IMG/VR virus record: IMGVR_UViG_3300019742_000001
Strand: one strand, 5' to 3'
Length of the DNA: 64,000 bases
Origin: a virus
Taxonomy: Duplodnaviria > Caudoviricetes
Shown: positions 23,496 to 31,733 of the stretch, one piece after another
How positions within the stretch are numbered: the stretch's first letter is position 1
Layout of the letters: every line of letters starts with the position of its first letter
The notes under the pieces: model-generated
The model's input: only the letters and a program-made list of their open reading frames with translations
The model's database searches: none
Told to the model about the DNA's origin: nothing
Translations under genes and position numbers: made by a program

Positions 23496-24242
23496 CTACC
23501 CCCTGCTCGTTGTTGTAGATTTTCTGGTACTCGTTGTCATTTTTTTATTCTTTTCTGCACTTAAAGTTGATCTGTACAAAGGATTAGCGTCAATAAAATT
23601 AATGTCAACCGTAGCCTTTGATGGGTAACCATCAATCCAAGGTCCGTAATAAGTTGGGGCGACTGATTGAATAGCAACAGTTTTAACACTTATGATATCA
23701 ACAGAGTTTCCATCACCTGTGTATGTCTGCAACCTAAAAACATACGGATAACTAAACTGTGTACTTCCTGTCATAATTTCAGGACAAGAATATTCAACCA
23801 ACTTCTGAACTGGAACGTATACATCGTTGTAAGTATCTTGATATACAACAAAATCCAATTGAACCTTAAATGCTCGTCTGGTTGAGTTTGTATACAAAAT
23901 AGGATTATCTGCCTTGTGTCCATCGGTTATAGATACTCCACCCTCACCCAACAATGAATTGTACTGACTCCCAACCTTAGCCTTTATCTCTTTGAATGCA
24001 CCTGAAATAGACGACAAGTCTTCCCATGTGTGATCTATATTATAACTCCATTCGGTTGGCATCAAAAACCACATAGGACTTTCACCTTTTAACTCGTTTC
24101 CGTTAAATGCATCCACCCTTGACCTGATGTTTTCTAAGTTTAGTGCCCGTGGAATGACCTGTAACCAAAGAGTATCCTTTGATTCAGCCCTTTCTCTATC
24201 TATACCGTTTGGATAAAACTGTCCACCAAAATTATTTGCCAT
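23496..24242 (-). CDS. Baseplate-tail tube initiator/cap (gp48/gp54-like)
   Basis: Tube-fold features (RRAFKVQLDF...YPYVF...); start moved to ATG 24242, which overlaps the tape-measure stop as TAATG. Confidence 0.65.
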   Translation of the reverse strand: MANNFGGQFYPNGIDRERAESKDTLWLQVIPRALNLENIRSRVDAFNGNELKGESPMWFLMPTEWSYNIDHTWEDLSSISGAFKEIKAKVGSQYNSLLGEGGVSITDGHKADNPILYTNSTRRAFKVQLDFVVYQDTYNDVYVPVQKLVEYSCPEIMTGSTQFSYPYVFRLQTYTGDGNSVDIISVKTVAIQSVAPTYYGPWIDGYPSKATVDINFIDANPLYRSTLSAEKNKKMTTSTRKSTTTSRG

Positions 24243-26452
24243 TATCCACCTAACCCCCATGTCTTATTATGTAACATCATACCCATGTTTTCTGGGTCTG
24301 TAGGTATATCATTATCTCTACTTTGTATGCTATTCATAATATTAGTTTGTTGTATTGCATTCCGTTGTCTCTCATCATTCGCTGTTGTCAATGTTGAATT
24401 AGTAATATCCAATTTTCTTCCTGTATCCTCAACAGCCGATGTCTGTCTTCCTGTCTGTTCTGCCCTCGCCCTATCTTTATCAGCAAATGACGGTAACGAT
24501 GACACAACCTGTTTTTTCGCATCCAACGATGCCATATAAGTGTCAATCTTCTCAGTTTGCTCCCTGTCCCAAAGATATGCACTACTAGGATATTCTTTTT
24601 CTGACCACCCACGACTTGCCAGAAATGCTTCATACTCTTTCCTCATAGTAGGAATATCTTCTTGTAATTGATCCACGGTCTTTCCACTAGGAGAAGTTCT
24701 CAGTGATATTCCATTTACTTCCTCATCAAAAAAACTAACGTCTCTATTTCCTTTCGAATATCTACTATAATAGGGAGAATATTCTGATTCTTTTTTTACT
24801 ATACTTGGTGTACGACTTGATGCTGGAGCAGAAACTTCACCATCTTCATCATCGTCACCAAAACCGGGAATCCAACTTGTAGCTTTATCCCATATCTTCC
24901 CAGCGGCACCCATAAGACCATCTTTTATAGAAGTGAATACCTCACCGACTTTCCCAAAAAATCCCATTAACGAATCCCAGATACCACCAATCCATCCTGT
25001 AACACCATCATACAGTTCTAATATAGCGTCCTTACCAAAATCAACCTGAAAATCAACCCCAAACATTTTTAATGCAGTATTAATAAGCCATTCTGGTATC
25101 ATCAATAATCCATCATAAATATCCGCTATTATCAATCTAGCCATTCCAGCCCAATCACCATCTTTAAACATCACAGATAACTTATCAAAATCCTTAAATA
25201 AATTATAAACAATCTTACCAACTGACATCACAACGGCAATAACACCTACGATTATTGGGATTGCTGGAATCAACGTGGTAGTAACAAATGCTGTTATAAT
25301 TGGAACAACCGCCATTAACATTGGACCGAGCCTCATCAAAGCAGACCACATACCCATACCGACATCCTTAGCCTTACTCAATCCTGCTTTCAATCTTTCC
25401 CGTTTATCGGCAAGCCAACGTTTAGCAGTTTCCCGTTTGTCAACAAGCCAACGTTTAGCAGTCTCATTTTTATCAACAAGCCAACGTTTAGCAGTCTCAT
25501 TTCTATCAACAATCCAACGTTTGGCAGTCTCATTTTTATCAACAAGCCAACGTTTAGCAATCTCTCTTTTCTCAACCATTCTCTCTTGTTTGTCAATAAA
25601 CCACATACGATAAGTATCTTTTTTGTTCTCCCACCACCGTTTAGTTTCTTCTTTTCTAGTACCAACCAATTCATTACGAATATCTCTCAAAGAAACAGCA
25701 GACTCTTTCTCGTAGTCTGTAGGACCAGAAAATAATGTCTTTCCGATAGTGAACATTGATTTTGATACAGCAACCAACGGTCCTGTTAGTGCATCAATTG
25801 GTGCCATAATAGCACTCATGTGCGTCTTAAAGTGACCACTAATCTCTTGTATTCCTGTCTTATAGTGTTCCATCATACCATCAGTCATTAACCTACCAAA
25901 CAACGGAACTGTTGTCAGAACACTTGACCTCCAACTATCCAATGTTCTTGTAAAACCAGAAATGATTGGATATAGTGAACTACTTCCAGTTTCAACGATT
26001 TCATCCATCGAAGATTCGACTTTAACCATCGCATTCTTAATAAACTCTTTGTTCTCTTTATAAAACTCTTTATTTTTCATGTAACGTTTGATGGTTTCTT
26101 GTTTCATCTGATTTACCATAAACTTCTTGTCTTCATCAGAAGCCTTCTCATAAGCAAGACGTTTATTGTCATCACGAGCAAACTGAACAGATACATCGTG
26201 GGAAATTTCTTTAGCGAACGTATCTTCTTTACCAAGTGCTTTTGATACCATCTTGGCTGTCTGTTCAGAAGTCTTTGCATTCTCCAACCTGACTCTGTTC
26301 TGAAAACGTTCCAATGCGGCTATCCCATCAGTTGACATTTCCAAATTGGTCTTTCCAAGATTCACCAACTTCTGTAGATACTCTGATTGTTTCGCCAATT
26401 GACTTTGATTAAGTATGCTACTTTTATCTGTATATTTTGTTGTATTCGCCAT
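24242..26452 (-). CDS. Tail tape-measure protein (gp29 equivalent)
   Basis: Helical, with 11-aa Trp repeats and a hydrophobic segment; follows tube and chaperone genes; start moved to ATG 26452 (SD GGAG, late promoter upstream). Confidence 0.8.
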   Translation of the reverse strand: MANTTKYTDKSSILNQSQLAKQSEYLQKLVNLGKTNLEMSTDGIAALERFQNRVRLENAKTSEQTAKMVSKALGKEDTFAKEISHDVSVQFARDDNKRLAYEKASDEDKKFMVNQMKQETIKRYMKNKEFYKENKEFIKNAMVKVESSMDEIVETGSSSLYPIISGFTRTLDSWRSSVLTTVPLFGRLMTDGMMEHYKTGIQEISGHFKTHMSAIMAPIDALTGPLVAVSKSMFTIGKTLFSGPTDYEKESAVSLRDIRNELVGTRKEETKRWWENKKDTYRMWFIDKQERMVEKREIAKRWLVDKNETAKRWIVDRNETAKRWLVDKNETAKRWLVDKRETAKRWLADKRERLKAGLSKAKDVGMGMWSALMRLGPMLMAVVPIITAFVTTTLIPAIPIIVGVIAVVMSVGKIVYNLFKDFDKLSVMFKDGDWAGMARLIIADIYDGLLMIPEWLINTALKMFGVDFQVDFGKDAILELYDGVTGWIGGIWDSLMGFFGKVGEVFTSIKDGLMGAAGKIWDKATSWIPGFGDDDEDGEVSAPASSRTPSIVKKESEYSPYYSRYSKGNRDVSFFDEEVNGISLRTSPSGKTVDQLQEDIPTMRKEYEAFLASRGWSEKEYPSSAYLWDREQTEKIDTYMASLDAKKQVVSSLPSFADKDRARAEQTGRQTSAVEDTGRKLDITNSTLTTANDERQRNAIQQTNIMNSIQSRDNDIPTDPENMGMMLHNKTWGLGG
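25398..25565 (-). repeat. Five 33-bp tandem coding repeats (ETAKRWLVDKN) in the tape measure
   Basis: caagccaacgtttagcag-type core at 25411, 25444, 25477, 25510 and 25543. Confidence 0.92.
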
Positions 26453-26470
26453 TATATTCTCCAAAAAACA

Positions 26471-26507
26471 AAAGGATCTAAGAGTATTTATATCTCTTAG
26501 ATCCTTT
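26471..26507 (-). promoter_or_regulatory. Late promoter TATAAATA forming the loop of a perfect 14-bp inverted repeat
   Basis: aaaggatctaagag (26471-84) + tatttatat + ctcttagatccttt (26494-507); U-rich tail on the minus strand. Confidence 0.8.
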
Positions 26508-26542
26508 ACGAATCTCATTAGGGTTAATTCCCTAAGATTATG

Positions 26543-26734
26543 TTATTTTTTATATGCTTCTGATTCTTCTTTCATGTCCTTTGACAACATTCCGACGATC
26601 ATCTTACGCTCAAATTCTGGCATCGCGTTACTATCCGAAATTGTTATATTCGCCCCTCTTGCCAGAAAATACTGTTCTTTCAATATAGAATCAAGTGAAC
26701 AGTCATTACACAGAACGAATATTAGATAAAAAAA
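26543..26734 (-). CDS. -1 frame extension of the gp26-like chaperone (T4-like gp51-type segment), reached by a probable programmed frameshift
   Basis: Unlisted 61-codon frame YLIFVLCNDCSLDSILKEQYFLARGANITISDSNAMPEFERKMIVGMLSKDMKEESEAYKK*; slippery T TTT TTT at 26734-26728; no SD-led start of its own. Confidence 0.72.
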   Translation of the reverse strand, partial: FFYLIFVLCNDCSLDSILKEQYFLARGANITISDSNAMPEFERKMIVGMLSKDMKEESEAYKK

Positions 26735-27471
26735 TCGTTTAATGGTATATCAACAACCTTTTCGTTCATACAACTCACACAAGATATGTCCTTCTTGAAT
26801 ACCACTCCAAACTCGTTATCAGTAAACCAATCAGTAAACACATCAAACACATCACTTTTGATATTATCAAGAATGTACTGTTTGTCTTCAAATGGAACGT
26901 TATCAAGTATACCAGATGGTGTATGAACCAATTTAACACAATTAACCAATGTTCCTGTTTGAATATCAATCTGTCTCTCACGCAAACTTAAATTCTTTTC
27001 GTTAGACCTACTAACAGCATTTTTCTGACCACCACGTGTCGGGTAATCAACTTCAAACTTCAAATCATCATTGATCGGTATAACAGCATCAACCTCTGGT
27101 CTTTGAACTACTTCCAGTTTCGTAAGATCAATACTAACCATGTTCTCTACACCACATTTAGGACACTTATACGTGAAACGATACATATTACCTTTCGTCA
27201 CTTTTCTAAGCTCTAATAATAGATTAAACCTATCTTGTAGATAGAGATCATCTATATTAAAATCCTCTGTGATCACACAATCGGATATTAACTTGTCTAG
27301 TGCCCTCTCAACAACATAAGGATCACTTTCATCCTCATACGCAAGAATCTTTTTCATTTGACCGGTAGTGATAGGCTTTATCATTAATTCCTGACCACTA
27401 CCAACCAACTTACAAGGAAATTCATAGGTTTCTATTAGACCTTTGATGTCCACAAATTTTGACTCACTCAT
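26722..27471 (-). CDS. gp26: Baseplate hub / tail assembly chaperone gp26-like
   Basis: YEFPCKLVGSGQELMIKPITTGQMKKIL...LRKVTKG...YKCPKC; ends DFFI. Confidence 0.85.
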   Translation of the reverse strand: MSESKFVDIKGLIETYEFPCKLVGSGQELMIKPITTGQMKKILAYEDESDPYVVERALDKLISDCVITEDFNIDDLYLQDRFNLLLELRKVTKGNMYRFTYKCPKCGVENMVSIDLTKLEVVQRPEVDAVIPINDDLKFEVDYPTRGGQKNAVSRSNEKNLSLRERQIDIQTGTLVNCVKLVHTPSGILDNVPFEDKQYILDNIKSDVFDVFTDWFTDNEFGVVFKKDISCVSCMNEKVVDIPLNDFFI

Positions 27472-27491: not shown

Positions 27492-28031
27492 TTATGCTGA
27501 CGCTTCTGTAGCAGAAGGTCCAGCTTGAATATCATCAATTACGTGATATTGGTATGTAAAGACAACATCAAAAGATGAAATCTCCTTATTACCATAATCC
27601 AAACTAATTTCACTTATAGAACTAGGCCATGCTCTGTGTAGACTATAATTCATAATTGAATTTCCATCAGAATCTAGTTGGGTCAAATCAACCTGACCAA
27701 AATAATCAGATGGTACCCCATGAGCATTACTCACAGGATCATGGATCTTGTTCATCCATTCCAGAAAATTGGTTCTGAGTGCATTTGCCGTATCAGATTT
27801 AAAATTAATGGTAAACTCAGCGAAAGTATTTGTTCCACCAAATTTATATTCGGCACCCTGCCATTTAGTTGTAATAGCTTCAATTGTTTGGGTTGGTAAT
27901 GATGCTGTATTAACTAAATATGGGTGGTCTTTTAAAATCTCTACTGGACTGTTAGATATTCTCGCATAAAACAAATACCCTCTTGAAAAATCACTATACG
28001 CCCCAATAAAATCATCTATCTTGAATCCCAT
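27492..28031 (-). CDS. gp19: Tail tube protein gp19
   Basis: Directly downstream of the sheath; ASLP...AWPSSISEISLDY...FDVVFTYQY tube motifs. Confidence 0.9.
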   Translation of the reverse strand: MGFKIDDFIGAYSDFSRGYLFYARISNSPVEILKDHPYLVNTASLPTQTIEAITTKWQGAEYKFGGTNTFAEFTINFKSDTANALRTNFLEWMNKIHDPVSNAHGVPSDYFGQVDLTQLDSDGNSIMNYSLHRAWPSSISEISLDYGNKEISSFDVVFTYQYHVIDDIQAGPSATEASA

Positions 28032-28091: not shown

Positions 28092-30365
28092 TTATACTGC
28101 CGCTGCAGCTTCTTCAAACGATGCACCTGTTTTAGTTGCAACAAAGTTAAGAACAATAAATTCTGCTGTTCTTGTTGGTTTGATAAGAATATCACACCAT
28201 AATTCGTTACGATCAACTCTCTCAGGTGTATTGTTACTATCGTCACAAATAACCTTGAAATCATAGATACCTCGTCTTGACTGTACATCCCTCAAGAAAG
28301 GGTTAATCATATTCACCAACAAACTTCTGGTAACCTTGTCATTTGGCTCAAACAAGAAATACTTAGCTGATGTTGAAATAGCTTTCTCTAATGTAATAAA
28401 CAAACGACGAACATTGACACGGTTGAAAGCAGATGATTTAGCCAACATTGTCTTCTGACCCCAAACAACCTTACCTTGTCCTGAAAAGGATACGATAGGG
28501 TTAAGACCATTTGAGTATAGAATATCTCTGTTACCTTGTTTTGGGTTCCAAGCTAGTCTACGAACACCAGTAAGAACCGCTCTGTTAAGACCAGCGGGTG
28601 CCCACCAAGGATCTGTTACATCATCAGTTTTTGCATAAATCCCACCAATGTAACCAGCAGTTGGAATCCAACGATACTTCTGATTGTATTTATCATAAAC
28701 TTCAATCCAGTTTCCGTAGATAGATGCATATGATGTGTTCTCATTAAATCCACCTTGTGAGAATGAACCTGTACCATTTCTCCAATCACGAAGTTGAACT
28801 GTCTCGTTACCTTTATTGTTAATAACCAATGTCTTTGGAACATCAAGAATTGCCATACAATCAAGACGCTCTTCACACATAGCAATGATATCTGATTTTA
28901 CTGTTTCTGATTTACCAGAATCAAGGATTAGGTTAACATCAACAGTCTCAGGATCTTCATACAATCTATAAGCCTCAATGATATCAGCATCAGATGGAGC
29001 ACCTGTTCCGTCACTACCACCAGCAAATCGATGGAATGTATCTACACATAACATAGATGGAAAGTCTTGACCTTCTAATGAAGATACATCAACCGAAATT
29101 CTAATGTAAGAAGATTGGTTATTAATGATGTCTTCAACAAATCTCTTACCACCTGTTTCATCAAGTGCATTTGGATCTGTTGATACATTAAATGTTTCTT
29201 TTGTAACCCATGTTGATTTTCTTTGTGGTTTCTCTTGAACCAATACCAAGAAATCTGTTGAACTTTCCAACTGTGAATCTATAGATGATAGTGCAGAAAA
29301 TGCATCACCATATTGAGTTGTATCTAATGTACCATCTAACATACTCTTTTGTGTATCGTAATCTAAGAATGCAATTCTAATATTATCACCCCAATCACCT
29401 CTTGAAGAAGCAATGAACCAGAAATAATCACTTACATTAGTTACTTGTACATCATCACCAAAGTCATCAGGATCTTCACTTGGAAGAACACTAAAATCAA
29501 GATCTGTTCCATTAATATCAAATGTACCACCACCAGAACTTAAAAGAACCTCGTCTGTCTGTAAAACACCGTCAACGATATTCTCAGTGATGTTAACAGT
29601 AAAACCAGAACCAGATCCACCAGTTGTCTCAACGTTTATTGCGGTTGAATAACCAGTACCACCATCAAGAACCGAGAATGTTAAAACTGTTCCATCTGTA
29701 TCAACAGTTTCTATGGTAAGTGTTGCGTCTTCATTACCACCTGTTACTGTAACGATATCCCCTTCAAGATATCCACCAACAGATAACAAATCACTCATTA
29801 CTGTTGATGTAGTTGTTTCACCAGTTACATCAACACCATAACCACCACCGCCAGCAACAAGGTCAACTGTAACAACAACCCCATCAATAACATTGGTAAC
29901 TTGAACAACAGCGTCAACTGAACCTTCTGTGTTCCCATTGATTGTAACCATTTCACCGATCTTGTATCCAGTACCACCAACGTTCAATTCCACTTCTGTT
30001 ACCGAACCTACTGTGTCACCAAATGGTATCGTTACAGTAGTATCTACTGTTAGACCAACACCACTTCCTGTACCTACTGTTAAACTTGCAAATGTTGCAT
30101 CTGAGTTTGCCACTCTTGTCGCATACAATTTGTTACCGTATTTCAGAAAACCCGCTGATGATAAAATATCTTCATATGATTCATCGGTTGGTTCCCCAAA
30201 CGCACTGATAAGATCACTCTCATCCGTAACGAGTGTTTGTTTCTTTTCAGCACCTTTGTATGTTTCTCTAAGGGCAATAACTCCAATACTTGTAGCAACG
30301 GCTGGAATAGTCGTAGACAAGTCAATCTCGTTTACATCTACAAGTGGAGACAAATAAAAAGCCAT
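28092..30365 (-). CDS. gp18: Tail sheath protein gp18 with inserted GGxGY modules
   Basis: LSPLVDVNEIDL start; PWWAPAGLNR, NPI...WGQKT...FNRVNVRRLF and P.RT.EFI motifs. Confidence 0.97.
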   Translation of the reverse strand: MAFYLSPLVDVNEIDLSTTIPAVATSIGVIALRETYKGAEKKQTLVTDESDLISAFGEPTDESYEDILSSAGFLKYGNKLYATRVANSDATFASLTVGTGSGVGLTVDTTVTIPFGDTVGSVTEVELNVGGTGYKIGEMVTINGNTEGSVDAVVQVTNVIDGVVVTVDLVAGGGGYGVDVTGETTTSTVMSDLLSVGGYLEGDIVTVTGGNEDATLTIETVDTDGTVLTFSVLDGGTGYSTAINVETTGGSGSGFTVNITENIVDGVLQTDEVLLSSGGGTFDINGTDLDFSVLPSEDPDDFGDDVQVTNVSDYFWFIASSRGDWGDNIRIAFLDYDTQKSMLDGTLDTTQYGDAFSALSSIDSQLESSTDFLVLVQEKPQRKSTWVTKETFNVSTDPNALDETGGKRFVEDIINNQSSYIRISVDVSSLEGQDFPSMLCVDTFHRFAGGSDGTGAPSDADIIEAYRLYEDPETVDVNLILDSGKSETVKSDIIAMCEERLDCMAILDVPKTLVINNKGNETVQLRDWRNGTGSFSQGGFNENTSYASIYGNWIEVYDKYNQKYRWIPTAGYIGGIYAKTDDVTDPWWAPAGLNRAVLTGVRRLAWNPKQGNRDILYSNGLNPIVSFSGQGKVVWGQKTMLAKSSAFNRVNVRRLFITLEKAISTSAKYFLFEPNDKVTRSLLVNMINPFLRDVQSRRGIYDFKVICDDSNNTPERVDRNELWCDILIKPTRTAEFIVLNFVATKTGASFEEAAAAV

Positions 30366-30380
30366 AATTGTATAATCCTC

Positions 30381-30884
30381 CTAATTAATATTTCTTATTT
30401 CATATCTATCGTAAACTAAGTTCGCAGATGATTCCAAATTTTGCGACCCTTCACGATAGGTTAAACTTATTTCACCTAACATGTTTATCCAAACTCCTAT
30501 AAGATCAACAACCATTATTTCTTCCTGAAAATTATCCAAGATTCTTAATGTAGCATCTATCTTATATTCGTTTCTTGTTCGACCATATCGGTCACTATTA
30601 TTATTTATAAAAGTTATCCATTTATAAAGTGTTGACCAGTTATTAAATTTCGAATCAACGGTGAATGTTACCAACCAAGGTTCGAATGTTATACTTCCTG
30701 AGTCCTGATGTATCGTTCCACCCTGCCAATTGATCTCTGTTGTATCAAGTGTCACAGAAGGGATAACTGTTGTATGGATATTCAAAGTCAACCCCTGCAT
30801 GTCTCGTATGTTGTCACTTACAGGAATTTTAGGGAAAATTAATTCAAAATTACTTGGTGTTGCTTTATTTAAATTAGTTCTCAT
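30381..30884 (-). CDS. gp3: Tail tube terminator / completion protein gp3-like
   Basis: NxATPSNFELIFPKIP start, tube-like fold, between gp15 and gp18. Confidence 0.75.
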   Translation of the reverse strand: MRTNLNKATPSNFELIFPKIPVSDNIRDMQGLTLNIHTTVIPSVTLDTTEINWQGGTIHQDSGSITFEPWLVTFTVDSKFNNWSTLYKWITFINNNSDRYGRTRNEYKIDATLRILDNFQEEIMVVDLIGVWINMLGEISLTYREGSQNLESSANLVYDRYEIRNIN

Positions 30885-31733
30885 TTATTTCTCCCCATTA
30901 ATAACATGTTCGTATTTAAACAATTCTCTTATTGAGTCATCCACTGGCACACCTTCTACTGGAATCTCAGTCGCAAATAAATTTCCCTGCATTGACTGAT
31001 TACCCAATTCACCTATCAACAACTCTGTATCCTCACCCCGATTTTCAAAAGATGAGTCACTTGTATATATGTTCTGAACAACACTATGAACTCTCTTGGT
31101 ATCATATGTAGGTGAAAATAAATAACCTTGTACCTTGAATGTTAAATCCCAACGTAGTACTCTATAACCAGCCTCATCTAAATCAACAGTTGCCTCTTTC
31201 GACGCACTTTCATAAACAACACGTAGGTCCAATTTATCCGAACCTGATTCTCCATCCTCTGACAAACCATCTATGTTTAATTCTGGTATCGTTATTCTTA
31301 TATATGACTCTGGTGTAAAAAATGGGAATATCTGTTCTACTATTTGTGTTATATCAACCATATACTCTGATGCAATCATAACTTTGAAAGTAAAATCATA
31401 TGGCACTGGATTGAAAAATTGTTTGTTACTGGAAGAATCACTTGATAGTGTTACCTTGTGATTACGGTTTACTTGTCTATCCAGTGCATATTCAACGTTT
31501 TCCATCTCTATTGCCATTGTAGGCAACACTTGGTCACGAACATCACCAGCTTCTTTTAACTCTGTCCAATACCATTGTTTGGTTTTTGGAGCAAAACTCA
31601 ACGGAACTTTTACATATTTAATAACCTCACCAGTTTCTTCATTGTATCTAGCAATAACTATGTCATTAAATAGATCAAGAAACTGGATGATGGTTTTTCT
31701 CATCACATTATAAAAAAAGTGTTGTTGTGCCAT
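30885..31733 (-). CDS. gp15: Tail sheath terminator gp15
   Basis: HFFYNVMRKTIIQFLDLFNDI...KVPLSFAPK...PVPYDFTF motifs. Confidence 0.93.
   Translation of the reverse strand: MAQQHFFYNVMRKTIIQFLDLFNDIVIARYNEETGEVIKYVKVPLSFAPKTKQWYWTELKEAGDVRDQVLPTMAIEMENVEYALDRQVNRNHKVTLSSDSSSNKQFFNPVPYDFTFKVMIASEYMVDITQIVEQIFPFFTPESYIRITIPELNIDGLSEDGESGSDKLDLRVVYESASKEATVDLDEAGYRVLRWDLTFKVQGYLFSPTYDTKRVHSVVQNIYTSDSSFENRGEDTELLIGELGNQSMQGNLFATEIPVEGVPVDDSIRELFKYEHVINGEK

Follow-up and report, generated by a model that had tools for sequence, protein, structure and literature searches.

Does the gp26-like tail assembly chaperone gene of a T4-type phage yield a single protein, or is it read in two frames to give a short and a long form? 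The question is raised by a stretch of viral DNA of 64,000 nucleotides (hereafter the window), which represents an uncultured lineage from a microbial mat. Its chaperone ORF (26722-27471) ends with GAT TTT TTT ATC TAA, and the -1 frame that can be entered at the T-run continues toward the tape-measure-like gene. The tail-chaperone frameshift of long-tailed phages, with lambda G/GT as its model, is textbook knowledge; its conservation was reportedly described by Xu, Hendrix and Duda in 2004, the lambda gpG/gpGT pair by Levin, Hendrix and Casjens in 1993 and the P2 E/E+E' pair by Christie in 2002 (all as cited in PMC12859696). A preliminary description of the window had proposed that an event of the same kind fuses gp26 to a gp51-like extension in a product of about 309 aa.

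The tail module of the window is of the T4 type and lies on the minus strand (Table 1). Its genes follow the order sheath, tube, chaperone, extension and tape-measure-like gene, which is identical in the relatives inspected, and the coordinates and profile matches bear out the order tube, chaperone, extension, tape measure given in the preliminary description. The chaperone gene sits between the tail tube and tape-measure-like genes, as in the lambda G/GT type, and the arrangement sheath-tube-chaperone-tape measure resembles that of non-T4 myoviruses, unlike that of T4. One copy each of the chaperone and the extension is present within the 64-kb window. All sequence statements of the preliminary description proved correct on re-reading, including the T TTT TTT heptamer in the gene end quoted above, the TGA closing the -1 frame shortly before the slip site and the 61 codons open to TAA. 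Because of the TGA, entry into the -1 frame is confined to positions 26728-26749.

Table 1. Features of the tail module and of the chaperone locus in the window
Feature	Position	Strand	Basis or detail
gp15-like gene	30885-31733	minus	
Tube-fold gene	30381-30884	minus	
Sheath gene	28092-30365	minus	
Tail tube gene (gp19-like), directly upstream of the chaperone	27492-28031	minus	PF06841 and phrog_45
gp26-like short-form tail assembly chaperone, 249 aa	26722-27471	minus	PF12322, phrog_150; TAA 26722-26724 included
Slippery heptamer T TTT TTT	26728-26734	minus	X XXY YYZ phase; P-site TTT, A-site TTT
TGA that shuts the -1 frame, seven codons ahead of the slip site	26750-26752	minus	
-1 frame extension, 61 codons, gp51-like C-terminal module	26546-26728	minus	TAA 26543-26545
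Predicted stimulatory RNA structure	26646-26722	minus	12-bp outer stem and inner helix
Tape-measure-like gene	24242-26452	minus	Weak PHROG tape-measure matches; position; size

The region between the extension stop and the tape measure gene contains, on the minus strand, a perfect 14-bp palindrome (26471-26507), the 9-nt loop of which includes the T4 late-promoter octamer TATAAATA. The palindrome is followed by TGTTTTTT, a GGAG and an in-frame ATG at 26450-26452; therefore, the true start of the tape measure gene is probably 26452 (736 aa) and not the first in-frame ATG, at 26518. In the gene calls of relatives, the next gene begins approximately 275 nt past the chaperone stop. A promoter and terminator scan of the minus strand returned nothing relevant, the scan missing the palindrome because its loop measures 9 nt, and an Rfam search of 26300-26900 likewise returned nothing relevant. 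In one relative, a 217-kb contig (L174:2548-3750), the gene at the expected place of the tape measure matches Cas12f1-like_TNB (TnpB-type, PF07282), which may reflect the insertion of a mobile element.

The 249-aa protein scores 101.7 bits with PF12322 (T4_baseplate), for which the curated cut-off is 24.5, and aligns to positions 4-218 of the 219 in that profile; it also matches the baseplate hub family phrog_150 with an E-value of 7e-26, and 58 homologues were found in the databases. Its AlphaFold2 model has a pLDDT of 90. When the N-terminal domain (residues 5-100) was compared with 48,161 PDB representatives by VIA-align, the best match was YqbN, an XkdN-type prophage tail chaperone (3klu; Z 7.1, 89 aligned residues, rmsd 4.7), ahead of 2ob9, the tail assembly chaperone of HK97 (Z 6.8), and of 3fgx (Z 6.7), with the following row at 4.5; at Z of about 7 these matches are moderate, since VIA-align values below 8 may reflect a common arrangement. 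The similarities of the modeled domain and the position of the gene point the same way, toward a tail chaperone. A Foldseek search of the PDB gave no significant match for the chaperone or the extension model (2ob9 appeared only at E 0.55), and a sequence-profile search of the PDB returned nothing. Residues 95-249 carry two invariant CxxC pairs, C103/C106 and C231/C234, and the C-terminal two thirds show weak structural matches to the zinc-ribbon proteins ZitP and LysW (Z 3.4-4.5). At 249 aa, the window chaperone is larger than that of lambda, and lambda-type chaperones are without a zinc-binding module such as these zinc-ribbon-like motifs suggest.

Taken alone, the heptamer is within what chance would give; what goes beyond chance is where it lies and that 97 distinct relatives keep it there. 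TTTTTTY occurs 38 times in the window, compared with 60.8 expected, and 99 of 100 shuffles contain at least 38; the low count is consistent with avoidance of slippery runs in an AT-rich phage. Another in-phase TTTTTTY lies at 24728-24734 in the tape measure gene, where a -1 stop follows immediately. The relatives were drawn from IMG/VR, metagenomes and one genome collection, together with eight contigs fetched by exact protein, and form a set of 97 distinct loci at 30-61% protein identity. The T-run with a -1 frame ORF behind it, the conservation of which among gp26 homologues the preliminary description had named as a check, is kept in this set: the gene ends with NNT TTT TTY NNN stop, and in 95 of the 97 the 0-frame stop stands exactly one codon past the heptamer. 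An in-phase T TTT TTY is found at the first position in 88 of 97, and most others have it one codon later. T TTT TTT accounts for 47 of the heptamers and T TTT TTC for 41.

The two codons of the heptamer are under different constraints. The P-site codon is TTT in 97/97 relatives, against a background of 0.79 among the Phe codons of these genes, and TTC fills the A-site in 42/97, double its background share. Ahead of the two Phe codons stands a T in 89/97; seven of the remaining eight read TTT TTT TTC and thereby have the heptamer one codon later. Where a Gly codon precedes the slip, it is GGT in 13 of 13 cases, compared with T at 42% of fourfold sites. With X and Y fixed and Z free, this is the pattern required by tandem tRNA slippage. 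The FF dipeptide is also kept in lineages without a slippery run, as in T4 gp26 (..EFFELL) and in Streptococcus phage GXN1 (TTC TTT), and part of the motif conservation therefore lies at the protein level. A conserved Phe-Phe dipeptide alone would not produce the asymmetry between the P-site and A-site codons, and the slip site seems to have arisen on an FF motif that was already present.

Some sequencing chemistries are prone to errors at homopolymers, and a miscount at the T-run could have split one 309-aa gene into two frames. Such an assembly artefact is excluded in practice, since 97 independent contigs share the layout; the two frames and the stop one codon past the run recur in distinct contigs from many studies and assemblers, with runs of 5-9 T, and three further runs carry the stretch of the window identically. 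We assign it a negligible probability. The sequencing runs that contain the window sequence are DNA metagenome runs only.

Across the 97 loci, the -1 frame is closed 10-91 nt upstream of the slip, and downstream it is open for 56-74 codons in every complete locus (loci cut by a contig end are left out of this count) except L115 and L130, two near-identical contigs in which a -1 stop comes after 17-18 codons. In the +1 frame, a stop is reached by about codon 10 in most loci and by codon 30 in all but one. The 92 extension peptides of sufficient length, from 91 relatives and the window, align end to end from the first post-slip codon and share the strongly conserved core EQY.LA..ANISI.ES..MPDFERE. 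In pairwise comparisons within the window's clade, the differences at the three codon positions amount to 0.25/0.12/0.45, a coding signature. AlphaFold2, supplied with an alignment of 46 relatives, predicts with confidence (pLDDT 89) that the extension folds into a small domain of helices. Fusion would give a product of 309 aa, with a predicted junction of ...DFF/YLIFVLCNDCSLDSILK.

These 61 codons could also be a separate small gene whose translation begins independently or through termination-reinitiation past the chaperone stop. GenBank cyanophage records do annotate a free, gp51-like ORF of 34-57 aa as 'baseplate hub assembly catalyst', S-CAM9 has ATGs just past the chaperone stop, and in some relatives gene callers report ORFs of 48-58 aa in the extension region. 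The distribution of start codons argues against this explanation, as no start codon is conserved in the -1 frame (94 loci). The only start codons that the window offers are a TTG (codon 16) and ATGs, the first of them at codon 36, none with a Shine-Dalgarno sequence, so that the preliminary description was right to report no start led by one. The frame of L021 contains no ATG, GTG or TTG anywhere, and in several loci the only ATG encodes the conserved Met of MPDFERE at codon 36, yet the peptide is conserved from codon 1. Gene callers leave the gap between chaperone and tape measure empty in L169, L172 and L173, and in T4 gp51 a tail of similar appearance is joined in frame to a chaperone body. 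A separate gene is thus very improbable. On the evidence of alignment and codon positions, the -1 frame is protein-coding from its first codon, without a start of its own.

The extension can be placed in a known family. Of 46 extension peptides, 33 match phrog_634, 'baseplate hub assembly catalyst', with a best E-value of 1.2e-10; the window's own extension gave no match in PHROG at E 0.01. Alignment by hhalign of the extension profile with the 'gp51' ORF of cyanophage S-CAM9 gave a probability of 89.5 and an E-value of 2e-6. The gp26-like gene of S-CAM9 ends with AGT TTT TTC GCT TGA and that of C48C1 with GAT TTT TTT TAA, and in both phages the 'gp51' ORF lies behind it in the -1 frame, the same combination of T TTT TTY and -1 ORF as in the window. 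By these profile comparisons, the extension is a gp51-type module, homologous to the cyanophage 'gp51' ORFs and to phrog_634. The preliminary description had called it gp51-like, and the matches to S-CAM9 and phrog_634 add support to that designation, while the link to T4 gp51 itself is weak: its C-terminus resembles the extension by eye, and hhalign places the profile at residues 221-247, the right location, with an E-value of only 0.098. In T4, gp26 (208 aa) and gp51 (249 aa) are encoded by separate genes on opposite strands. Both are listed as hub assembly chaperones, and gp51 is required for assembly but absent from the particle (PMC3004832).

The lineage has no close cultured relatives, the best tblastn match in phage records showing 22% identity. 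Its closest relative at the chaperone locus, L165 (= L002, L083), shares 61% identity and lies on a 9,280-bp contig that was binned in the MAG 'Candidatus Izimaplasma bacterium HR2' (JRFF01000034.1); this bin could be a hint at the host or could contain a mis-binned phage contig. A different layout is seen in three cultured phages, Listeria phage LIS04 (L175:3078-3383), L176 and L177: behind the PF12322 gene, it is the +1 frame that contains the gp51-like extension. For LIS04, hhalign of the +1 frame against the extension profile gave a probability of 95.5 and an E-value of 1.5e-8; the profile match of L177 falls short of significance (E 0.083), and L176 was assigned by visual inspection alone. 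In the LIS04 record, the extension gap carries no annotation. The +1 layout of LIS04 may correspond to a +1 or -2 recoding site or to an overlapping start.

The region downstream of the heptamer contains a predicted RNA structure that is specific to the window's clade. RNAalifold applied to 46 diverse loci gave no pairs, so there is no family-wide structure. The window itself folds with an MFE of -21.5 kcal/mol (z -3.2), and a consensus fold was derived with RNAalifold from 19 sequences of its own clade. The outer stem of 12 bp (26711-26722 with 26646-26657) begins 5 nt past the heptamer and encloses an inner helix (26699-26703 with 26671-26675). The clade structure has 17 pairs, and 96% of the cells are paired, compared with 35-54% when the partners are slid. 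Covariation is evident from 37 double-change cells versus 14.1 in shuffles, with 0 of 500 shuffles reaching the observed score, and compensatory changes occur in 7 pairs. Pair 18-84 is the clearest: it joins synonymous sites of a Phe codon and an Ala codon 66 nt apart, and it appears as UA in 11 sequences, as CG in the other 8 and never with a change on one side alone. In a second clade, a 10-bp GC-rich hairpin is located 6 nt after T TTT TTC. Spacers of 5-6 nt are usual for stimulators of -1 frameshifting. A candidate stimulatory structure that combines a spacing of 5-9 nt with covariation was found for the window's clade only. An upstream Shine-Dalgarno-like stimulator is absent in 78 of the 97 loci.

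Run length varies from 5 to 9 T across the relatives: half have 8-9 T, 42 have only 6, and the window has 7. In loci with T5-7, the mean MFE is -21.6 kcal/mol, compared with -16.6 kcal/mol for in-locus controls (p 4e-9), and in loci with T8-9 it is -16.4 versus -15.2 kcal/mol (p 0.13, not significant). A rule by which a short T-run needs structure and a long one does not is no more than a lead, since a tree offered only 5-9 independent contrasts, and these revealed no association (sign test p ~1).

These observations bear on transcriptional slippage, in which RNA polymerase would add one U on the T-run and ordinary translation of the altered transcript would give the fusion. The abundance of 8-9 T runs and the lack of significant downstream structure in the T8-9 loci as a group would suit this route, yet the 7 T of the window and the 6 T of 42 relatives do not, as runs of 6-7 T are short for efficient polymerase slippage, and the link between run length and structure is gone once relatedness is considered. 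Moreover, the T-run never departs from the X XXY YYZ phase, no codon other than TTT occurs at the P-site, and the excess of TTC at the A-site makes the run shorter. The covarying stem of the window's clade is kept at the 5-nt spacing typical of ribosomal stimulators. Transcriptional slippage is accordingly improbable, although somewhat less so than a separate gene.

Considering the conservation of the heptamer and of the -1 ORF, the start codons, the stem and the homology together, a programmed -1 ribosomal frameshift very probably generates two forms, a short one of 249 aa and a long one of 309 aa, and the proposal of the preliminary description is supported on this basis, the long form being deduced from the DNA. 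In the proposed mechanism, most ribosomes would read GAT TTT TTT ATC and stop at the following TAA, yielding the 249-aa equivalent of gp26. A minority, with tRNA-Phe occupying both the P-site and the A-site on U UUU UUU, would pause at the RNA stem that begins 5 nt further on, slip back by one base and read 61 codons to the TAA of the -1 frame, yielding the 309-aa form with the gp51-type helical module as its tail. The slip would be helped by the downstream stem and perhaps also by the adjacent stop. By analogy with lambda gpG/gpGT, both forms may together cover the tape measure protein and bring in tube subunits, assisting tail or hub assembly while staying out of the virion. From the observed anatomy of the sequence, its conservation, the coding of the -1 frame, the RNA covariation and the homology of both parts, we infer the occurrence of the slip, its efficiency and the protein partners.

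The likeness to lambda gpG/gpGT lies in the position between tube and tape measure, the heptamer close to where the short ORF ends, a second frame that lacks a start of its own and the long form as the presumed minor product. The heptamers differ, G GGA AAG in lambda and U UUU UUU in the window, and no sequence similarity of the window proteins to lambda proteins was detected; the moderate structural similarity of the N-domain is to the HK97 chaperone. In T7 gene 10A/10B, a U-rich slip site a few codons before the 10A stop gives rise to a C-terminally extended minor form. The U-run a few codons ahead of the 0-frame stop is the feature shared with the window; the T7 product is a capsid protein of unrelated sequence. 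This -1 frameshift is mentioned in PMC12846349, in which a chaperone frameshift at GTTTTT is described for Pakpunavirus/Andersonviridae. The argument for that system is similar, built on a T-run that does not vary where the short chaperone ORF ends and on a -1 frame that stays open among divergent relatives; the protein family and the motif are different ones, and no RNA covariation is reported (PMC12846349).

T4 gp26 and gp51 belong to the same Pfam family as the window gene, PF12322, and the C-terminal FF is common to T4 gp26 and the window gene. The two forms of T4 come from two separate genes on opposite strands, whereas here one gene and a slip are proposed. PMC10885494 and PMC12846349 credit Vladimirov, Gautam and Davidson (Virology 2022) with identifying the T4-like chaperone genes; both papers, citing that work, refer to these genes and to poly-T slip sites, and in the passage of PMC10885494 that concerns it, T4-likes are said to have one short gene and one long fused gene in place of a frameshift. 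The frameshift idea is not new in kind: lambda G/GT is the known precedent, and for T4-like phages the idea has been in print since 2022, to the extent that the citing passages convey (Vladimirov et al. 2022, as cited in PMC10885494, PMC12846349).

The variety of layouts in the family raises the possibility, which we regard as tentative, that the chaperone family reached its short and long forms by several different mechanisms. Candidates would be a heptamer with a long-range covarying stem that encloses the first 25 extension codons, as predicted for the window's clade; a heptamer with a local GC hairpin; runs of 8-9 U without detectable structure, possibly acting through polymerase slippage; the +1 extension of the LIS04 group; and the two genes of T4.

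For tail assembly, the window leaves existing knowledge unchanged, as the G/GT logic and the T4-like extension have already been published. For annotation, its value is more immediate: gene callers and GenBank records leave the gap empty or call a truncated 'gp51' ORF, and the real products are probably chaperones of 249 and 309 aa. What the window adds is a deep uncultured clade of approximately 100 distinct contigs, covariation support for a clade-specific stimulatory stem and a concrete construct for reporter tests. The main value of the locus thus lies in annotation and in comparative work on recoding; if several mechanisms have indeed been used, the family would constitute a natural series on how recoding signals are gained, swapped and lost.
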